64,000 bases of DNA from a virus. Position numbers and translations under genes: made by a program. How positions within the stretch are numbered: the first letter of the stretch is position 1; each line of letters begins with the position of its first letter. The notes under the pieces are model-generated. The model was given only the letters and a program-made list of their open reading frames with translations. It did not search any database and had not been told where the DNA came from. The stretch is taken from IMG/VR virus record IMGVR_UViG_3300019487_000018, positions 69,459 to 133,458 of that record, one strand, 5' to 3'. This document shows positions 54,773 to 64,000 of this stretch, one piece after another.

Positions 54773-55137
54773 TGGCTCGTAGAAAGAAACCAGACGCAGA
54801 GACGCCTGAACAGGCGAGACAACGAAGAATTTTCGAGACGATTTGTGACCATGCAACGCGTGGTGAAAAGGTATCGTGGAATCGATTGATGGACAACATG
54901 GTGTCTTTGCTTGCAAAGTTAAAACCGATTGAAGACAAAATCGTCGCGCTGCAGTCACAGAAACTTCCGATCATTGACGAAGTTGCGAATCTTCGCCGAC
55001 GAATGGTAATGGACTGTGTTCATCCGTATGAACAACTAGTGCTTACTGCTGAACACGTTGAGTGCAAATTCTGCATGAGGCGCTTTCGCGTGCCAAATAT
55101 GCACGACGATAGCGTGTTGAGTCAGGATTCCCAATGA
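54772..55137 (+). CDS. Hypothetical coiled-coil protein with C-terminal C/H motif
   Basis: CVHP..ECKFC; coupled operon. Confidence 0.65.
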   Translation: MARRKKPDAETPEQARQRRIFETICDHATRGEKVSWNRLMDNMVSLLAKLKPIEDKIVALQSQKLPIIDEVANLRRRMVMDCVHPYEQLVLTAEHVECKFCMRRFRVPNMHDDSVLSQDSQ

Positions 55138-56066
55138 ACAAGGAACTATTGAACTATCTTCGTCATCTTTCCGAAGAAGACATCAAATCACTTTCACAGC
55201 GAGCTCTGAAAACGTGTGAAGAAGTTGGTGAGCTCGCTCGTGTTGTTTTGCCTTATGACGGAGTATATGCAACAAATCATCGTTTTGCGACCCGCGAGGA
55301 TATTCTCGAAGAAGCTGTCGATACGGTGTTCTGTGCTTTATCAGTTGCTCATGCGCTTCAGTTTACCGACGAAGAAATTGAAGATATGATGTGGCTGAAA
55401 GCGGAAAAGTGGGCTCGACTGCAACACAACGAAAAGAACCTGAAATACCCAGTACCATTTGAGATTCATATTACTGTTGAACTGGATCCAATGATAGAAG
55501 ATTCCGAGCGATTCAAAACAACATGCGCCGAGGCGAACGTAAAACCACTTGATCTCGTAACACAAACAAGAACGATCAAAGATGTGATGACATCATCAAA
55601 ACATTTCGGAGACAATCGGTCGGCCTATGAAGAGATGAAACGAATTACTGGCCGTTTGATGGCAGCAGGATTCATGGTAGTTCGAGAAAAGATTGAAACT
55701 GTTTCTTGGCATCCAGCCGCTCCACAACACATCGGTGATGGTTCAAAAATGCCAGAGAATTGCTATTTTGAAAGTCATATTCCTGTTCGACTCCATCCAA
55801 ATGATATGGATATTCTTACTCGTCGTTGTAAGGAAATGGATCTACATCTTTCCCAAAATGCCTTTAAGACACACGAAGACGGTGACGTGACATACATGGC
55901 AACATATCGAGTATATGAAGGCACCAATGAACAGTTCCGTGCATATGTAGATCAGGCCGTTCAATATCTTGACGCCCAGGAATACATCGTTGGAAAACCA
56001 ATGAACGAATTTAGCGTATATGATACGAAAGTGAGCCACGACGCAAAATGGCTGACCGGAAACTAA
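55134..56066 (+). CDS. MazG-like NTP pyrophosphohydrolase fused to an unknown C-terminal domain
   Basis: KTCEEVGELA..ILEEAVDT (MazG EExxE..EExxD); second domain FEIHITV..REKIET..YFESHIPV. Confidence 0.75.
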   Translation: MNKELLNYLRHLSEEDIKSLSQRALKTCEEVGELARVVLPYDGVYATNHRFATREDILEEAVDTVFCALSVAHALQFTDEEIEDMMWLKAEKWARLQHNEKNLKYPVPFEIHITVELDPMIEDSERFKTTCAEANVKPLDLVTQTRTIKDVMTSSKHFGDNRSAYEEMKRITGRLMAAGFMVVREKIETVSWHPAAPQHIGDGSKMPENCYFESHIPVRLHPNDMDILTRRCKEMDLHLSQNAFKTHEDGDVTYMATYRVYEGTNEQFRAYVDQAVQYLDAQEYIVGKPMNEFSVYDTKVSHDAKWLTGN

Positions 56067-57269: not shown

Positions 57270-58508
57270 ATGACAACGTACGTAATCGATTTTTCGGACC
57301 CTCTTAAAGATGGGTTTTCGATCGCACCAGGTGGATTCAACGGACCTGGCGGTTCTGCCTCAAATACATCTCTCCGTCTTTACGGTCGAGGCGCACTAGA
57401 ATGGGGCGAATCTGTTAATGAAGACCTCGTCCGTCTTACAGAAAACTTCAACAGCGCTACACCACCTATTACACCAGTTGACGGTATGTTGTGGTTGCGA
57501 ACAAAGTACTATTGGCTCCGCACGGCAGTTGATTGGTATGTTCGTGATCCTGATTCACCTGCTGCTTGGGTATTCCTGTCAACAATTGCAACCGGTGGTG
57601 TTGTCAACGGTGGTGCTGTAGGTACAAACGTAGCTCCAGCTCACGCGATCGGTGTGTATTGGTACACAGGTGGTGCTCCAACTGATCCTCTGACATCGAA
57701 CCTTGACGCGTTTGGTGACCCACTCACACCCACAACATTGTATCGTTGGGACTCAGCATACAAGCAAATTCCAGCCGGTTGGATGCCACAAGCATTTACA
57801 CAAAATGCAGCTGCTCCAACTGCTGCAAACTTCCCGGAGAAGAGCTTGTTGGTTTGGGACGCGTTCCAGGGTGTTAGTGGAACGTTCGTTGCTCCACCAA
57901 TTTCGATTGTTGCACCAACTCAACCAGCACAGGCAACGGAAGGTACATTGTGGTGGGATAGTGTCAACAACATTCTGTATGTGTGGAACGATTTCACGAC
58001 AACATGGCAGCCATTGGTTACAGGAGGCGGTGGCGGATCTGGTGATACGACTTATCTACGTCTTGATGGCACAAACACACCAACAGCTAACCTAAACATT
58101 GGTGGCTTCCGTCTGACAAACATTACAACAAACGTAGGTGTAGCAACTGACGCTTTGAGTGTCGGTGCCGCCGATACTCGTTACGTAAACATAACCGGTG
58201 ATACAATGACTGGCGTGCTGGCGATGGGTGCATTCAACATCACCGGCCTACCTGTCATGTCTTACCCTGACTTGGTCAACACCGAGTTTGCAGCAACAAA
58301 GAACTACGTTAATACTGCAGTCACGTCGATTACAAGCGGTGGCGGTTCGGTTACTGTTCCGTCGGTGTTTGTATCGCCAGCAGTTCCGACCTATAAGGCT
58401 GGTGACATCTATGTCTTGGGCGCTGTGATCTACATTGCTATCGGCGTAGGTGTAGGTGCTCCTCCGGGTGGTAACTGGCGACAAGTGTTCCCAGCACAGT
58501 ACTCATAA
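57270..58508 (+). CDS. Virion (baseplate/fibre-type) protein
   Basis: TAAATA at 57231; SLRLYGRG..WGESVNEDLVRLTENF..P..GMLW, GTLWWD, YVNITGDTMTG motifs shared with the fibre genes. Confidence 0.75.
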   Translation: MTTYVIDFSDPLKDGFSIAPGGFNGPGGSASNTSLRLYGRGALEWGESVNEDLVRLTENFNSATPPITPVDGMLWLRTKYYWLRTAVDWYVRDPDSPAAWVFLSTIATGGVVNGGAVGTNVAPAHAIGVYWYTGGAPTDPLTSNLDAFGDPLTPTTLYRWDSAYKQIPAGWMPQAFTQNAAAPTAANFPEKSLLVWDAFQGVSGTFVAPPISIVAPTQPAQATEGTLWWDSVNNILYVWNDFTTTWQPLVTGGGGGSGDTTYLRLDGTNTPTANLNIGGFRLTNITTNVGVATDALSVGAADTRYVNITGDTMTGVLAMGAFNITGLPVMSYPDLVNTEFAATKNYVNTAVTSITSGGGSVTVPSVFVSPAVPTYKAGDIYVLGAVIYIAIGVGVGAPPGGNWRQVFPAQYS

Positions 58509-58510
58509 AG

Positions 58511-58539
58511 TTGAGATTGTGACCGAGTTGTAGTATGAT
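58511..58539 (+). promoter_or_regulatory. Sigma70-like promoter heading the radical SAM operon
   Basis: TTGAGA-N17-TATGAT, 20 nt upstream of ATG 58560. Confidence 0.55.
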
Positions 58540-58559
58540 CGACAGACAAGGAAAAGGTA

Positions 58560-59735
58560 ATGACAGGAGCTGCAGTCTCATTCTACAAGCGATCTGACGC
58601 GGGTACATTGCGTAAGCATACACCGTCAGCATTCAAAACAGCTCCCCTTGCAATTGCTCCTCAGCTAATGCTGACAGAGCTAATGGTGTATTTGAAGACG
58701 ACTGAAACCTGTCAACTCAACTGCGCACACTGCTTCACCAACGGAATCAACGGACGAAAAATCTACTTCGATCCAGCTCGAACAATCGATTGGTTCCATC
58801 GTCTCCATGCAGTAAATCCAACCCTGGCGGGAGGAAGTGTCGCTTTTCATGGTGGGGAGCCAATGCTTGCTCCAATCGCCGATATGCGTCGTACATGGGA
58901 AGCGTGCAAGGATTTGTGGCCAACAGTTTGGTGGACAACAACGACAAACCTTGTATACAAACTCGACGATGAAAAGCGCCTATTCTTCAAGGAATGCTTT
59001 ACAGACGGCATCTCAACTTCTTGGGACAAGAATATCCGATTTGATAACGAAAAACAGGAAGCTCTGTGGGCTAAAAACGTCCAAACACTTCTCGATGATG
59101 GGCATAAGATCACGCTTATGGTAAGCTTAAATCGTGCGATCACTGATATGAACCCGGAAGATTTCCTGCGTTGGGTTGGTGATATCGGCGTTCACTATTT
59201 GCATCTTGAACGAATCACCCCAAATGGTAACGCAACTCGCAACCCACACATCCTTCCTTCAAATAAAGAACTCGATGCTTGGATGCTGCGATTATGGGAT
59301 GCAAGTTTGAAGCTTGGCACACATAAGTACTTTGCTAATCTGTTTTTGAACGGAATTTTGTCGAGCTTTGTGTCATTAACACATTCGGGTTGTCGTTGTC
59401 GAAGTTGCGAGAAGAAGATTTTCACCCTGAACGCAGATGGAACAATTGGCGGATGTCCAAACAGTGCAGTAGACAACACGTTCGGAACAATGGAAGATGA
59501 TATTTTCTCGTTGCTTAGCAGCGAGGGGCGAATCGAAAACATTGCTTGTGAAACACAACGCAATCCGCTGTGCTACACGTGCGATGTTTATGACGTTTGC
59601 AACGGTGATTGTCACCAACTTGCATGGGAAGGCGACGTTTGTGCAAGTCCGAAATCGTTGATGCGTCGATTCAAAGCAGAGAACAATAGAGAACAGTATG
59701 AGATGTTCCTTAACGGGTTCATCGGCAAGGAGTAA
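58560..59735 (+). CDS. Radical SAM protein with SPASM domain
   Basis: CQLNCAHC (CxxxCxxC), FHGGEP, TTTNL; SPASM-type CRCRSC..GGCPN..CYTCDVYDVCNGDCHQLAWEGDVC. Confidence 0.93.
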   Translation: MTGAAVSFYKRSDAGTLRKHTPSAFKTAPLAIAPQLMLTELMVYLKTTETCQLNCAHCFTNGINGRKIYFDPARTIDWFHRLHAVNPTLAGGSVAFHGGEPMLAPIADMRRTWEACKDLWPTVWWTTTTNLVYKLDDEKRLFFKECFTDGISTSWDKNIRFDNEKQEALWAKNVQTLLDDGHKITLMVSLNRAITDMNPEDFLRWVGDIGVHYLHLERITPNGNATRNPHILPSNKELDAWMLRLWDASLKLGTHKYFANLFLNGILSSFVSLTHSGCRCRSCEKKIFTLNADGTIGGCPNSAVDNTFGTMEDDIFSLLSSEGRIENIACETQRNPLCYTCDVYDVCNGDCHQLAWEGDVCASPKSLMRRFKAENNREQYEMFLNGFIGKE

Positions 59736-59737
59736 CT

Positions 59738-60391
59738 ATGGCTATCGCTGGCACAGACATCACGAAAGACAATATCACTGGATCAGGTGGCGTTGACTTG
59801 AACTCGTTCAAGCAACAAATCACCGACGTTGTCAACGCACTCACAAAAACAACAAGCGTGTCCGCAAACGGGACTGCACTAGGTCAAAAGCCATTTGGTA
59901 GTGGTGCACCAATTAGTGGATCGTTGTCAAGCACCAACTATGGTGGAACACCTCCTCTGTCTGCGCCACTTGTCGCTCCTGGCACGGTGACGAATTCACC
60001 ACAAGCAAGTGACATTGCAGGTGCGAACATTGCAGCAGCCACTCTGATCACATTGTTCCAAAACACAGCTGTATTACTGTCCCGTGTTCGTCGCTATTCA
60101 ATGGTAAAAACATACCTTAGTCCAGCGCCTGTTATCCAACTATCACTTACAGAACCAGGCCGCTATGGTTATCTGACAACAACGTACCAAGCAAATCCAG
60201 CAACAACAACACCAGCAATCACGACATCTTTGGCAGCTCTTACTGGCGATATTAGTGCAGCAACGTTAAACACAGTAATTGACAACGTTGACACCGCAAT
60301 TACGAACCACAGAAACACAACCGTCGCGTTCACGGAAACGTGGTGTCACTCAAGCTGTCACAGCAGTCATAGTTCAAGGAACCGTCGCTAA
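59738..60391 (+). CDS. Putative radical SAM substrate/precursor with C-terminal WCHSSCHSSHSSRNRR
   Basis: 217 aa, Thr/Ala/Ser-rich body; both Cys and three His-Ser-Ser units lie in the last 15 residues; GGAG RBS right after the rSAM stop. Confidence 0.7.
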   Translation: MAIAGTDITKDNITGSGGVDLNSFKQQITDVVNALTKTTSVSANGTALGQKPFGSGAPISGSLSSTNYGGTPPLSAPLVAPGTVTNSPQASDIAGANIAAATLITLFQNTAVLLSRVRRYSMVKTYLSPAPVIQLSLTEPGRYGYLTTTYQANPATTTPAITTSLAALTGDISAATLNTVIDNVDTAITNHRNTTVAFTETWCHSSCHSSHSSRNRR

Positions 60392-61155
60392 TGACCACAG
60401 TTACAACAGAACTTCCGCTTTCAATGGACGCCTTGCGTCAGGTAATTACACAACCAGATGCAGGAGTGGTTGTTGACTACAACAACAGTAACCTCAAAGG
60501 CCGTGCAGCGCTCATTTACATGACGAATACAAACTTACCAAATGTTGCTCTGAACATGACAGATGTGTCTCTCGAAGAGAAGTTTGTACTCGTTGACGAC
60601 TACATCACTCACAAGTCAATCCTGCATGTAGCACAACTAGTCAACACCGTTTTGAATGTGTTATTCGCCGTTCGGAAAGTTGACATTGGTGCTGAACAAG
60701 ACATATTGGATCAAGTGTCGCTATTTCCACAAGAACATGTCGGCGAATATCTTGCAAATCCAACACGAGCTGAACACATCAACAAGCTGATTGAACTTCT
60801 CGACAGTCTACCTCTGTACGCTGTAACGTGTTCAACATCATTCCGCGAAGTATACGGTAAAGGAAAAGAAGCGTTTGAGCCGGTTAACGACATTGATCAT
60901 ACTGGTTTCACATTCGTCCACCTGTTGACTCATCCGTTGTTCCTCGAATATTTCACACAACCAGCTACGACGACACTGAAGTATTACGTTCAGCAGTTCG
61001 ACGAGTACATGTATAACGGAAAATCGTTGTTTCCATTTTTGGTAAACTCGCCTGTATTCGGTATTCTTGAGTGTTACATCACAGGGGCGGTGGACCTTGA
61101 TCAGCTGCTTACAGCACACTCAGAAATGAATGCTTTGGAAGGAGCTGCAGCCTAA
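60391..61155 (+). CDS. Hypothetical protein in the radical SAM operon
   Basis: 254 aa, TAATG-coupled. Confidence 0.75.
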   Translation: MTTVTTELPLSMDALRQVITQPDAGVVVDYNNSNLKGRAALIYMTNTNLPNVALNMTDVSLEEKFVLVDDYITHKSILHVAQLVNTVLNVLFAVRKVDIGAEQDILDQVSLFPQEHVGEYLANPTRAEHINKLIELLDSLPLYAVTCSTSFREVYGKGKEAFEPVNDIDHTGFTFVHLLTHPLFLEYFTQPATTTLKYYVQQFDEYMYNGKSLFPFLVNSPVFGILECYITGAVDLDQLLTAHSEMNALEGAAA

Positions 61156-62258
61156 TGCTACACCTGTTCAACAAGATATACGTCAAGGGAGATCATCTTG
61201 TGAAAGGTTCGCGAGATGCAATTATCATCTCGCCGACCTATGGAAATGTTCCATTTTACACGACGAAATTCTCAACTCGGGCAAACAACGAAAAAACAGG
61301 CCAACTGTGCTATTCAGCAACGTCGCTCAAAGAACTGCTCGACACTCACTTTGGTGGATCTGATGCAAAATTCTTCAATTACCTCATGAAATGGCCTGCC
61401 GAGAAACGATTAACGATCTACGCCGATCTTCCGACAATGGTTGATATTGCAACGAGATTCTTCAAAACAGTATTCCCAAAGATGACGGAAGACACATATG
61501 TTGTGGTGATGAAGTTACTGCTCTCCCGTATCAACTACTACCTAGGCGGAGCTGTTTTGCCATTCGTAACATTAACAGAGGACCAGGCAAATTCATACCG
61601 CGTCGAAACACTTCAAATTCTTGAAGATGTTGGTGGATTGCGCCATCGATTTCAAGAAACTGCACGCTGGCGCCTGACAAAAGTGGCACGTGACAGTATC
61701 ATCCGCAACTGCAGCGTTGAATACCAATTGGCGACCTATCTAACAAATCCAAAATGGGCACATGCTCGTGCGTTTGAGAAAAAGGCTGTGTCAATGGCTA
61801 AGAAGCAAATCATTCACGAATATGCTCTAGAAATTAAAGGAGCTATTGTTCGGAACTTCATGAATCTTATCGTTCTTGAACCGACAGCAACGTTCAATTC
61901 TCTGAAAGATTCACTCGAGACGTTTGTTCAACAGTTCCCTCAGTATGCATTTGTTCTCGATGATGGATTTGTGCCAGACAATGCCGAGCATATCTGGCTT
62001 AAATACAACATGGAGGATTTGAAAACAGTGTTTGATCGCGTGACACACAAGTTCGTGTTCATTGCACAGGACTACACACCTCTGTTGAAGAAATTGACGT
62101 TCGAAGATGTGTTGAAGTATGAGCTGGACCGGCCATATCGCTGCTTTTTGTTCAATGGTGACAACTATCAGGAAACTGTCAACTCTTACTTGATTGACTA
62201 TATCCTGAATGCTTATCGGATGAACCAACACGAACAAATTCGCCAGCTGGCACTGTAA
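61155..62258 (+). CDS. Hypothetical protein, paralogue A (MLHLFNKIYVK)
   Basis: 367 aa; shares DAIIISP, EYQLATYL..P.W, VNSYL.DY with the next ORF. Confidence 0.8.
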   Translation: MLHLFNKIYVKGDHLVKGSRDAIIISPTYGNVPFYTTKFSTRANNEKTGQLCYSATSLKELLDTHFGGSDAKFFNYLMKWPAEKRLTIYADLPTMVDIATRFFKTVFPKMTEDTYVVVMKLLLSRINYYLGGAVLPFVTLTEDQANSYRVETLQILEDVGGLRHRFQETARWRLTKVARDSIIRNCSVEYQLATYLTNPKWAHARAFEKKAVSMAKKQIIHEYALEIKGAIVRNFMNLIVLEPTATFNSLKDSLETFVQQFPQYAFVLDDGFVPDNAEHIWLKYNMEDLKTVFDRVTHKFVFIAQDYTPLLKKLTFEDVLKYELDRPYRCFLFNGDNYQETVNSYLIDYILNAYRMNQHEQIRQLAL

Positions 62259-62267
62259 GGGAAAACA

Positions 62268-63338
62268 ATGTTACACCTACTAAACAAAGTCTACATTAAA
62301 CCAGACGCTGATTTCCAGCGAGGTCACGATGCAATTATCATCTCTCCGAAAACGAAGCTGTTTGACAGCGAACTTTTTGGTGTGGATGACATCGACTTTG
62401 GTAAGATCCACTTCACCGCAGAAACATTCGATGCTCTTGTCGAGGTATTTGGAAGTGAAGACGCTTTTGTACAGTGGTTGGTTTATTTCGATCCGTCGAC
62501 TCGTCTGGTTGTACATTGTGATCCAGCTACATTCGAGCACATTCTGGTTCGATGGCTTAAGACGATCCTTCCAAACATGGACGGTTCGAGTTTTCACAGT
62601 CTGATTCGCATAATTTACGCTCGATACGGTTACCAGTTTGGTTATCCGTACGTTCCATTTGTTCGCCTAACACCAGACGCTGCTGCTGTGTACAAGAGCT
62701 TCTTAGCTCGTATTCCTTCAAAGGAACAAGCGGTGCAGATGTGGAATCAGGCACAGCCATACACTGTGAATGTCGATTCTGCTGCTGTAAGTTTGGAATA
62801 CCAACTCGCCACATACTTGGATGATCCGACTTGGGAACATACCGACCAGCTGAAAGCAAAAGTCATCACCATGGTCAAGAAGTTTCAAGTTGGTTCACTA
62901 CTCGATGTAAAAGAAGTCATGCTTGGGCACTTGTATATGTTACCAGACTTTGATCAGTTGAAAGATACACTGGTACACTATGTTACAGAACACCTCGAAT
63001 ACACATTTTTGCTGGACATGAAACTGACCTCAGACGACTACACACGATTGTACGATCAATACAATACAGCTGTACTGCGTCAGATCTACATTGATTACTT
63101 CAAAATGCATGCGGATATTTTTGACGAGACACAAGTTGAGAAAGATCACTTCCTCGATCCTGCAATCACATTTGAACAAATCATCGACAATGAGCTAGCT
63201 TCAATCGCTACGCGACAACTGCTTGGCTCGTGGGAATATGGCCTGACAGTCAACACTTACCTGCTAGACCACCTCTTTGCGCTCGAGAGAGCGAATGACC
63301 AGGCTGAGTTGAAGAAGTTCTCGCTCCTAAGGAGTTAG
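62268..63338 (+). CDS. Hypothetical protein, paralogue B (MLHLLNKVYIK)
   Basis: 356 aa; DAIIISP, EYQLATYLDDPTW, VNTYLLDH. Confidence 0.8.
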   Translation: MLHLLNKVYIKPDADFQRGHDAIIISPKTKLFDSELFGVDDIDFGKIHFTAETFDALVEVFGSEDAFVQWLVYFDPSTRLVVHCDPATFEHILVRWLKTILPNMDGSSFHSLIRIIYARYGYQFGYPYVPFVRLTPDAAAVYKSFLARIPSKEQAVQMWNQAQPYTVNVDSAAVSLEYQLATYLDDPTWEHTDQLKAKVITMVKKFQVGSLLDVKEVMLGHLYMLPDFDQLKDTLVHYVTEHLEYTFLLDMKLTSDDYTRLYDQYNTAVLRQIYIDYFKMHADIFDETQVEKDHFLDPAITFEQIIDNELASIATRQLLGSWEYGLTVNTYLLDHLFALERANDQAELKKFSLLRS

Positions 63339-63340
63339 CG

Positions 63341-64000
63341 ATGAGCATGGATTTCGTAATCGACTTCAACCTTGAGCTGTTACATGGTTGCAAGTGGAAC
63401 TGCACTGGCTGCAATATTGGTAAGGAAGAACAAGACGGCTTTCTTGACGGCGATTTCGATCGTTTGATGCATTTGTTTGAGGATCTCGAGCGAAACTTTC
63501 ACATCCTATCAAACGTTGCAATCACACCAACCGACTTCATTGTTTCGAACAACGCAGAGCAAATTTTCGTTCCAGAACTCAAGCTCATGCTTGACAAGTT
63601 CAAGGCGGTAACATTGAACACAACATTCCTGCACGATGATGACGTGCTGGAATACTGGGCAGCCAAACTACGACCGCTCCTCAAGGGCAATACTCTGAAG
63701 TTTAGTGTTCCTGTCGAACCAGATCACTATATGAACAAGAAGTACATGGCAAAGATCCTTCACAATCGTGACTACATGGTCAGTTTGCTTCCAGAAACGA
63801 AATACACAAAGACGTACTTGATCGGCAATTTGTACGAGTACAAGAAGTTCGTCGACTTCGAATTCTACAGCGAAGACTTTCACGATAAGTGGGATGGACA
63901 CCTCGATTTGGTGATTACAGAGGGGCGTCTTAATTTGACGAATCCGTTCAACCGTCAGCGGTTGCGTCATATGATCGAATATCAGAACGATCTTTACAAT
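63341..64000 (+). CDS. Second radical-SAM-like protein, 3'-truncated by the window (not in ORF track)
   Basis: Manual translation MSMDFVIDFNLELLHGCKWNCTGCNIGKEEQDG...; CxxxCxxC near the N-terminus; 220 open codons; AAGGAG RBS. Confidence 0.8.
   Translation, partial: MSMDFVIDFNLELLHGCKWNCTGCNIGKEEQDGFLDGDFDRLMHLFEDLERNFHILSNVAITPTDFIVSNNAEQIFVPELKLMLDKFKAVTLNTTFLHDDDVLEYWAAKLRPLLKGNTLKFSVPVEPDHYMNKKYMAKILHNRDYMVSLLPETKYTKTYLIGNLYEYKKFVDFEFYSEDFHDKWDGHLDLVITEGRLNLTNPFNRQRLRHMIEYQNDLYN

Follow-up and report, generated by a model that had tools for sequence, protein, structure and literature searches.

A cassette of five radical-SAM genes linked to a protein with a conserved Cys-His-repeat tail in a phage fibre module and on Bdellovibrionota chromosomes

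The maturation of ribosomal peptides by radical S-adenosylmethionine (rSAM) enzymes with SPASM domains is well known. In the bacterial antiphage defence HXS, named for a His-Xaa-Ser motif, two such enzymes, HxsB and HxsC, mature the protein HxsA; the resulting change of +8 Da maps to the sequence SHRSS, whose His and Ser are essential (PMC13128918). The triceptide synthases HaaB, HtkB and YhhB are rSAM/SPASM enzymes as well, and they link the His C2 to the C-beta of the residue at +2 in precursors with repeated aromatic-X-X motifs, which is described as an aromatic-X-X rule (PMC11499958). How do these systems compare with the rSAM genes at the end of a 64,000-nucleotide stretch of viral DNA (the window; positions 69,459 to 133,458 of the IMG/VR record IMGVR_UViG_3300019487_000018, a single contig of 193,297 bp)? 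These genes belong to a cassette whose enzymes, in what we regard as the probable explanation, modify the C-terminal tail of a fibre-associated virion protein, the product of the gene at window position 59738.

The six open reading frames (ORFs) that an earlier note on this DNA had described are all present on the plus strand: rSAM1 (58560-59735, 391 aa), the tailed protein (59738-60391, 217 aa), p254 (60391-61155, 254 aa), p367 (61155-62258, 367 aa), its paralogue p356 (62268-63338, 356 aa; 28% identity, E 6e-39) and a second CxxxCxxC protein, rSAM2, which starts at 63341 and runs to the window edge. The first junction is a gap of 2 nt, the next two are ATGA overlaps and the last two are gaps of 9 nt and 2 nt, and gaps and overlaps this short indicate that the six genes are tightly coupled. 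What the note took for a two-rSAM operon is, when the sequence is read past the window edge, the start of a larger unit. With window numbering continued beyond position 64000 into the rest of the virus record (window-extended positions), the cassette spans about 12.4 kb, from 58560 to about 70982, so that the window holds its 5' third, and its products comprise five rSAM enzymes, two 2-oxoglutarate (2OG)-Fe(II) oxygenases and three conserved uncharacterised families (p254, p367/p356 and p152).

The presumed substrate (plus strand; 22.4 kDa, pI 9.0) ends WCHSSCHSSHSSRNRR, exactly as first described, and its C-terminal motif at 60341-60388 (plus strand) aligns with other tails as W-CHSS-CHSS-HSS-RNRR. 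The repeat unit is, however, not the His-x-Ser that had been read from it but Cys-His-x-Ser/Asn with a period of 4. A profile search of 1.84 billion representatives (E<=1e-3) returned a family of 598 cluster representatives, and among the 150 matches listed of these the tail (C-H-x-S/N)2-3-R-x-R-R-COOH hardly varies. Among 113 tails of type A, the Cys and His of all three repeats and the final R-x-R-R are invariant, at least 95% have S or N at repeat position 4, and position 3 is free. The window belongs to a type B clade of 23 members that reads [W/Y]-CHxx-CHxx-HSS-RxRR, in which the third Cys is absent. Where a His is replaced, in three sequences, it is only by Tyr, and the number of CH repeats ranges from two to six across the family. 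The body of the protein is poorly conserved by comparison (33% mean column identity), and a tail this constrained on a body that varies is the pattern expected of an enzyme recognition site or a core motif. The varying repeat number and the tandem precursor genes seen at some loci, both RiPP-like traits, likewise speak for a modified substrate. The 217-aa protein matches no NCBIfam or Pfam family. Its AlphaFold2 model is of low confidence (predicted local distance difference test, pLDDT, of 47, too low for a fold search) and contains a short helix at residues 205-211. Two tail variants were also noted: P0028 lies on a 1-kb contig whose context is uninformative, and P0138 is a chimeric-looking call on a 1.3-kb contig.

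The tail travels with the enzymes. We compared 45 tail-bearing loci, around which the fetched stretch was often incomplete, and in 42 of them that stretch holds at least one homologous rSAM gene, an arrangement that matches the co-located precursor with a conserved core known from rSAM/SPASM maturases. Among the same loci rSAM1 is present in 30, p254 in 26 and the p367 family in 20, and no other enzyme is found next to the tailed protein as constantly as rSAM1. Searches with rSAM1 and with rSAM3 recovered exactly the same 15 of 50,697 phage records, representing about 11 phages with genomes of 222-490 kb (Atu_ph07, Phosso, the RSL2/RSF1/FLC/S13 group, RsoM3USA and DT01), and megablast of the region against phage records gave no match. 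In the translated loci of Atu_ph07, RSL2 and DT01 the gene 3' of rSAM1 ends CH-x-S, CH-x-S, CH-x-S/A, R-x-R-R, stop, and in IMG/VR and metagenome loci the motif likewise ends the gene after rSAM1. Homologous loci do, then, carry a CH-repeat-tailed neighbour, as the earlier note had supposed, and with the same motif apparently ending the neighbouring gene in every related phage, the tail lies far beyond chance. The core that emerges from gene maps consists of an optional cupin, rSAM1, the tailed protein, p254, p367, rSAM4, one to five rSAM2-like genes, rSAM3, rSAM5, 2OG oxygenases and p152; one locus (L012) adds a B12-dependent rSAM and four oxygenases.

A further question is where the tailed protein ends up. 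The homologue in phage Atu_ph07, when translated, has 296 aa and 31.89 kDa, which equals the value tabulated for gp170 in the published virion proteome of that phage (gp176 and gp177 also match their tabulated values). In that proteome gp170 was detected with 8 unique peptides and 35% coverage in gel bands 1-9, and it was most abundant in band 1. Other proteins of 29-32 kDa in the same table peak in bands 7-8, and sheath and wedge proteins of 117-137 kDa in band 2. Since gp170 peaks in the top band despite its 31.89 kDa, it must run largely as a high-mass species that resists heat and sodium dodecyl sulfate (SDS). The cassette enzymes and p254 (gp165, gp168, gp169, gp171 and gp172) do not appear in the Atu_ph07 virion proteome table. 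Moreover, the genes around the window cassette point the same way. Immediately 5' of it lies a tail-fibre-like protein of 412 aa (57270-58508, plus strand), whose PHROG matches are virion structural and tail fibre families and which shares its N-terminal domain with a fibre-like protein of 763 aa (BLASTP E 5e-15 and 6e-14); this last protein stands at the downstream end of the region together with fibre-like proteins of 1444 and 741 aa. With fibre-like genes on both sides, the cassette is embedded in a fibre module. Homologues of the 412-aa protein also lie upstream of rSAM1 in the relatives L005, L007 and L015. Independent support for a fibre or virion role comes from longer members of the tailed family: P0004 contains an inserted segment with matches to PHROGs for tail fibre, decoration and virion structural proteins (up to 7e-30, phrog_11518), and P0095 an N-terminal Gly_rich_2 domain. 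For these reasons a modified virion protein, one of several outcomes that the earlier note had listed, now has real support. From the enzyme set, the terminal motif, its linkage and the virion location of a homologue we infer that the tail is the substrate.

Alternatively, the body of about 200 residues could serve as a leader or scaffold from which the modified Cys-His repeats are cut off as a small peptide or as several copies of a small molecule derived from Cys/His, such as a metallophore, redox cofactor or antibacterial. The layout resembles that of a RiPP (a peptide made on the ribosome and modified after translation) in several respects, since the core sits at the extreme C-terminus, the repeat number varies, precursor genes occur in tandem (L024, L032, L034, L044 and L061) and tailoring enzymes are many, including the B12-rSAM mentioned above. 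Pyrroloquinoline quinone (PQQ) and mycofactocin are precedents for rSAM/SPASM action on a C-terminal core. However, the intact homologue gp170 is found in virions with the coverage given above, structural fibre domains have been gained inside what would be the leader, which is unexpected of a disposable segment, and neither a protease nor an exporter was recognised in any cassette examined. We consider this alternative improbable. As no protease or exporter is recognised in the window cassette, where some ORFs remain unidentified, the tail probably stays on the protein, as the proposal of a modified virion protein would have it.

Could the repeat act without being modified? Unmodified Cys and His residues might bind Zn, Fe or Cu, as on the axis of a trimeric fibre, and the rSAM enzymes and oxygenases would then have some other target, be it a different virion protein, a lipid, a sugar or a nucleotide. 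Cys-His pairs with a period of 4 would line one face of a helix, and the low-confidence model has its short helix at residues 205-211. His-rich metal sites are known in phage fibres, namely in T4 gp37 and gp12. The top model for rSAM5 is viperin-like, and one Bdellovibrionota island contains a gene that looks glycosyltransferase-like by eye. Against this, the tailed protein stays linked, gene by gene, to rSAM1 and p254 through extensive rearrangement in phages and bacteria alike, the third Cys is dispensable while the His is kept, with Tyr as its only replacement, and it is not obvious what a simple metal site would need the conserved S/N at position 4 or the R-x-R-R for. A purely metal-binding tail therefore seems an unlikely explanation, to which we give about the same small weight as to a released peptide.

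The enzymes themselves bear the marks of the rSAM superfamily. CX3CX2C is present in all five; the full SPASM motif CX2CX5CX3C is found in three (rSAM1, rSAM3 and rSAM4), and a twitch-like half domain, with CX2CX5C and a later Cys, in the other two (rSAM2 and rSAM5). In rSAM1 (phrog_1802 at 2e-57), which had been described as an rSAM enzyme with a SPASM domain, the CX3CX2C lies at residues 51-58, a GGE at 98-100 and the SPASM-type CX2CX5CX3C at 338-351 in the C-terminal domain; its best NCBIfam models are anSME (6e-11), DynA (1e-9), DarE, PapB and YhhB, aligned over most of its length. The divergent rSAM2 (63341-64378, window-extended, plus strand; 5' part to 64000 in the window) is complete at 345 aa and carries CKWNCTGC at residues 17-24 and CX2CX5C at 305-314; both Cys motifs are kept in 23 of 23 family members, and other loci hold one to five copies. 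Further downstream follow, in window-extended positions, rSAM3 (64375-65517), rSAM4 (66088-67185), two ORFs without identification, the oxygenases (68413-69015 and 69003-69647), rSAM5 (69644-70588) and p152 (70524-70982). Against Pfam Radical_SAM (PF04055, cut-off 29.5) only rSAM3 passes with 36.4 bits, while rSAM5 reaches 26.4, rSAM4 19.7 and rSAM1 17.9, and rSAM2 has no match; scores against the SPASM model TIGR04085 are 23.7 and 26.5 for a cut-off of 27. Judged by these alignments, the enzymes look most like rSAM/SPASM maturases that modify peptides or proteins, and not like nucleotide or cofactor enzymes, although every family score is far below its cut-off. A predicted complex of rSAM1 with residues 150-217 of the tailed protein scored 0.01 with a partner pLDDT of 39 and has no bearing either way.

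Is the cassette then a version of the HXS system, one of the pathways with which the earlier note had compared it? The likeness is functional. In both, several rSAM enzymes act on a protein of about 200 residues and not on a short peptide, His and Ser stand in a basic context (SHRSS in HxsA, SHSSR in the window), and the product would act as a protein at the envelope in the encounter between phage and bacterium. However, HXS has two rSAM enzymes, whereas cassettes of the window type have five to nine as well as oxygenases. The HXS genes are carried by the defender, whereas the window type is carried by the attacker, be it phage or predator. The window protein places a Cys-His-x-Ser/Asn repeat of period 4 at the extreme C-terminus, followed by R-x-R-R, and it has no peptidoglycan-binding domain and no match to the HxsA model; HxsD is missing as well, and gene content and order differ from those of HxsABCD. 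Against the HxsC model TIGR03977 (cut-off 267.9) rSAM3 scores 32.7 bits, over the N-terminal core only, and rSAM5 18.7 bits, and the HxsB model TIGR03978 is absent among the matches listed for every cassette rSAM. Membership in HxsABCD was ruled out by these family scores, as every family test fails, and that the cassette is a phage copy of the defence, or a decoy against it, is accordingly a very remote prospect.

The triceptide synthases offer a closer chemical guide. The window tail satisfies the repeated aromatic-X-X pattern, with H-x-S/N three times and a His that is invariant or rarely Tyr, and rSAM1 aligns along the full YhhB model. Since H-x-S/N fits the aromatic-X-X rule, a His-centred cyclophane is a plausible reading, and the His-to-Tyr swaps are easier to square with it than with a metal ligand. 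The cassette enzymes are nevertheless not members of the three-residue cyclophane-forming families: scores are 23.3 for YhhB (cut-off 445), 17.1 for XyeB (450), 14.2 for FxsB (370) and 15.6 for GrrM, with cut-offs of 310-450 overall. Type A tails differ in having an invariant Cys before every His, the presumed substrate is a virion protein and not a short secreted peptide, and many more enzymes are involved. The sulfatase maturases anSME and AtsB share with the cassette the SPASM enzyme and the action on Cys or Ser of a folded protein in place of a leader-bearing peptide, and rSAM1 aligns to anSME over near its full length, with 42 bits for a cut-off of 349. The sulfatase motif C/S-x-P/A-x-R is, however, not kept; in most of the 113 tails the last repeat has G, S or N at +2, in 4 it has A, and P never occurs there. 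Formylglycine formation at the third Cys was rejected as the conserved reaction, since the window clade lacks that Cys and has S or N instead. For rSAM4 the closest models are QhpD and PapB (about 6e-6), at scores far below cut-offs, and for this reason the Cys residues may form thioethers. QHNDH, the case to which QhpD and QhpC belong, is alike in that several crosslinks are placed on a small protein subunit, which remains part of the finished assembly, but the window tail has no Asp or Glu to serve as partner for the Cys-to-Asp/Glu thioethers made by these enzymes and PapB.

None of the three uncharacterised accessory proteins has an NCBIfam or Pfam match, and PDB sequence searches with p367, p254 and rSAM1 found nothing. 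The core accessory protein p254 (phrog_20767 at 1e-35) has an AlphaFold2 model with pLDDT 86.5, few invariant polar residues, a single uncharacterised relative in AFDB and no PDB match to its fold (best Foldseek E 0.36; VIA wide, best Z 4.6); p367 matches phrog_36207 at 2e-10. For p367 and p254 the ESM Atlas gave poor models and no usable neighbour.

The cassette is not confined to phages. A degenerate DNA pattern for the type A tail, run against 185,579 species genomes, gave 47 matches where our calculation under uniform base composition expects about 0.1 by chance. Of these, 42 are real tail ORFs, about 30 of them from Bdellovibrionota and including contigs of 1.3-2.8 Mb, and they are flanked by the same rSAM1-5, p254, p367 and p152 families. 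On two megabase Bdellovibrionota contigs that we examined, the cassette is a compact island without a shift in GC content, and none of the island neighbours resembles window phage genes. One island (G003) is set among genes with housekeeping functions (serine dehydratase, an Mrp/NUBPL ATPase and an SLT transglycosylase). In keeping with the fibre context in the phage, it adjoins a pilin-like protein that bears a fibre-chaperone domain (Peptidase_S74) and is seen again at four other loci; in another island (G001) a 2355-aa RCC1-repeat protein stands inside the cassette. The backbone of the window phage, queried with an upstream phrog_11058 protein, was not found in five Bdellovibrionota assemblies. 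In a tree of rSAM1, phage and bacterial sequences interleave, well-supported branches force at least seven changes, and the window groups with a version from Pseudobdellovibrionaceae. The cassette is thus also a stand-alone chromosomal island in Bdellovibrionota, and what the earlier note had called a phage version of a pathway is not phage-specific.

This distribution allows a bolder idea, which we offer tentatively and think rather unlikely, that giant phages and predatory Bdellovibrionota share and repeatedly exchange a cassette of five to nine rSAM genes and oxygenase genes that builds a multiply crosslinked Cys/His "warhead" at the C-terminus of a fibre-associated protein for attack on the envelope, a mirror of HXS. 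If it were true, a covalently polymerised or metal-loaded tip would be a means, not known until now, of attacking the Gram-negative envelope or getting across it, and attackers would use in reverse the related chemistry by which the HXS defence blocks DNA entry. Beside the Bdellovibrionota islands a 511-aa protein was also noted (G003:C1:301369-302907, equivalent to L074:9369-10904, and in L047 and L055); its N-terminal half looks like a DxD glycosyltransferase by eye, and it has no Pfam match.

How, then, might the cassette work in a phage? We propose that the rSAM enzymes would install several crosslinks or oxidations on the tail in the reducing cytoplasm. The likeliest changes would be His-centred three-residue cyclophanes on H-x-S/N, Cys thioethers, or both, with the oxygenases probably adding hydroxylations. 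The finished protein would then be built into the virion with the neighbouring fibre proteins, and its tip, which would be rigid and cationic and would probably bind metal, would do its work at the target cell's envelope. Several points weigh against this proposal. Modification itself, like the tail as its substrate, the chemistry and the role at the envelope, is something that we infer, and the virion location is that of the homologue gp170 and not of the window's own protein, whose phage is known from metagenomes only, its DNA occurring in two cave-metagenome runs. A heat-stable oligomer or an aggregate, and not covalent links, could explain why gp170 sits in the top band, and a Cys/His repeat could bind metal without any modification. 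Bdellovibrionota chromosomes have no virion, so that "virion protein" cannot be the universal role of the tailed family. The nearest models are peptide and protein maturases, but every rSAM score lies far below the curated family cut-offs, and the chemistry therefore cannot be read from homology; the viperin-like model covers only the generic N-terminal core of rSAM5.

The cassette is a real and conserved case of the rSAM-mediated maturation type, with an unusual enzyme load, substrate and distribution, and no prior description of it was found. In genome papers the phage genes figure only under the label "accessory radical SAM genes" or with a guessed role in DNA repair, and some jumbo-phage reviews do not mention the cassette. 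As far as we found, post-translational radical chemistry on a phage structural protein has not been described in the literature. The family is large, with its 598 tail-protein clusters, an exceptionally constrained core of 16 residues and many rSAM enzymes per substrate, and it links two kinds of bacterial killer, the jumbo phages and the Bdellovibrionota. It offers new enzymology in the division of labour of five enzymes on C-H-x-S/N and a testable reason for a 32-kDa virion protein running at the top of a gel, and a new principle by which hosts are recognised or penetrated may come to light through it. Carriers that can be cultured exist in Atu_ph07, RSL2/RSF1, FLC6, S13, DT01 and Phosso.

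Other features of the region are of lesser weight. A sigma-70-like hexamer pair, TTGAGA-17-TATGAT (58511-58539, plus strand), lies in the 51-nt gap before rSAM1 and matches at 10 of 12 positions, so the hexamers on which a promoter had been proposed are present. The promoter itself is not established: 7 such sites occur in the region for 10.0 +/- 3.2 expected in shuffled sequence, and the hexamers are not conserved in the relatives L005 and L015, for which reasons a functional sigma-70 promoter at 58511 was rejected. Two ORFs encode putative HNH endonucleases, one inside the cassette (65518-66042, window-extended; L004:8977-9501) and one after it and before the downstream fibre-like genes (71025-71603, window-extended; L004:14484-15062). 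They are related to each other (45% identity over 74 aa, E 1e-15), the first has no Pfam match, and both are labelled HNH because of how their sequences read and because related cassettes lack them; they have the look of inserted mobile endonuclease genes. Upstream of the 412-aa fibre gene lies a MazG-like pyrophosphatase fusion (55134-56066, phrog_1247 at 1e-38). Proteins identical to those of the window occur on a contig of 351,809 bp, so the 193,297-bp record may be partial or a longer assembly may exist.

Annotation and relatives yielded a few further observations. RSL2 ORF071 (L002:12576-13961) and Atu_ph07 gp164 (L001:15159-16073) have deposited starts that exclude the CX3CX2C motif; as read from the DNA, their frames stay open upstream and include it, so that both are annotated too short and not as radical-SAM proteins. 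Variants of tail and cassette occur in Gram-positive assemblies (L045, Dysosmobacter; L050, a Bacilli metagenome-assembled genome), among them a tail with six CH repeats spaced by NVV and a cluster with three rSAM4-like genes. The Ralstonia phages RP12 and RP31 carry at ORF70-76 (PMC5468394 supplement) a different multi-rSAM cluster beside virion and YomR-like genes, with a 537-aa rSAM, an "arylsulfatase regulator" and MoaA-like and MgoB-like proteins; neither the rSAM1 nor the rSAM3 search matched it, and it may be an analogous system.

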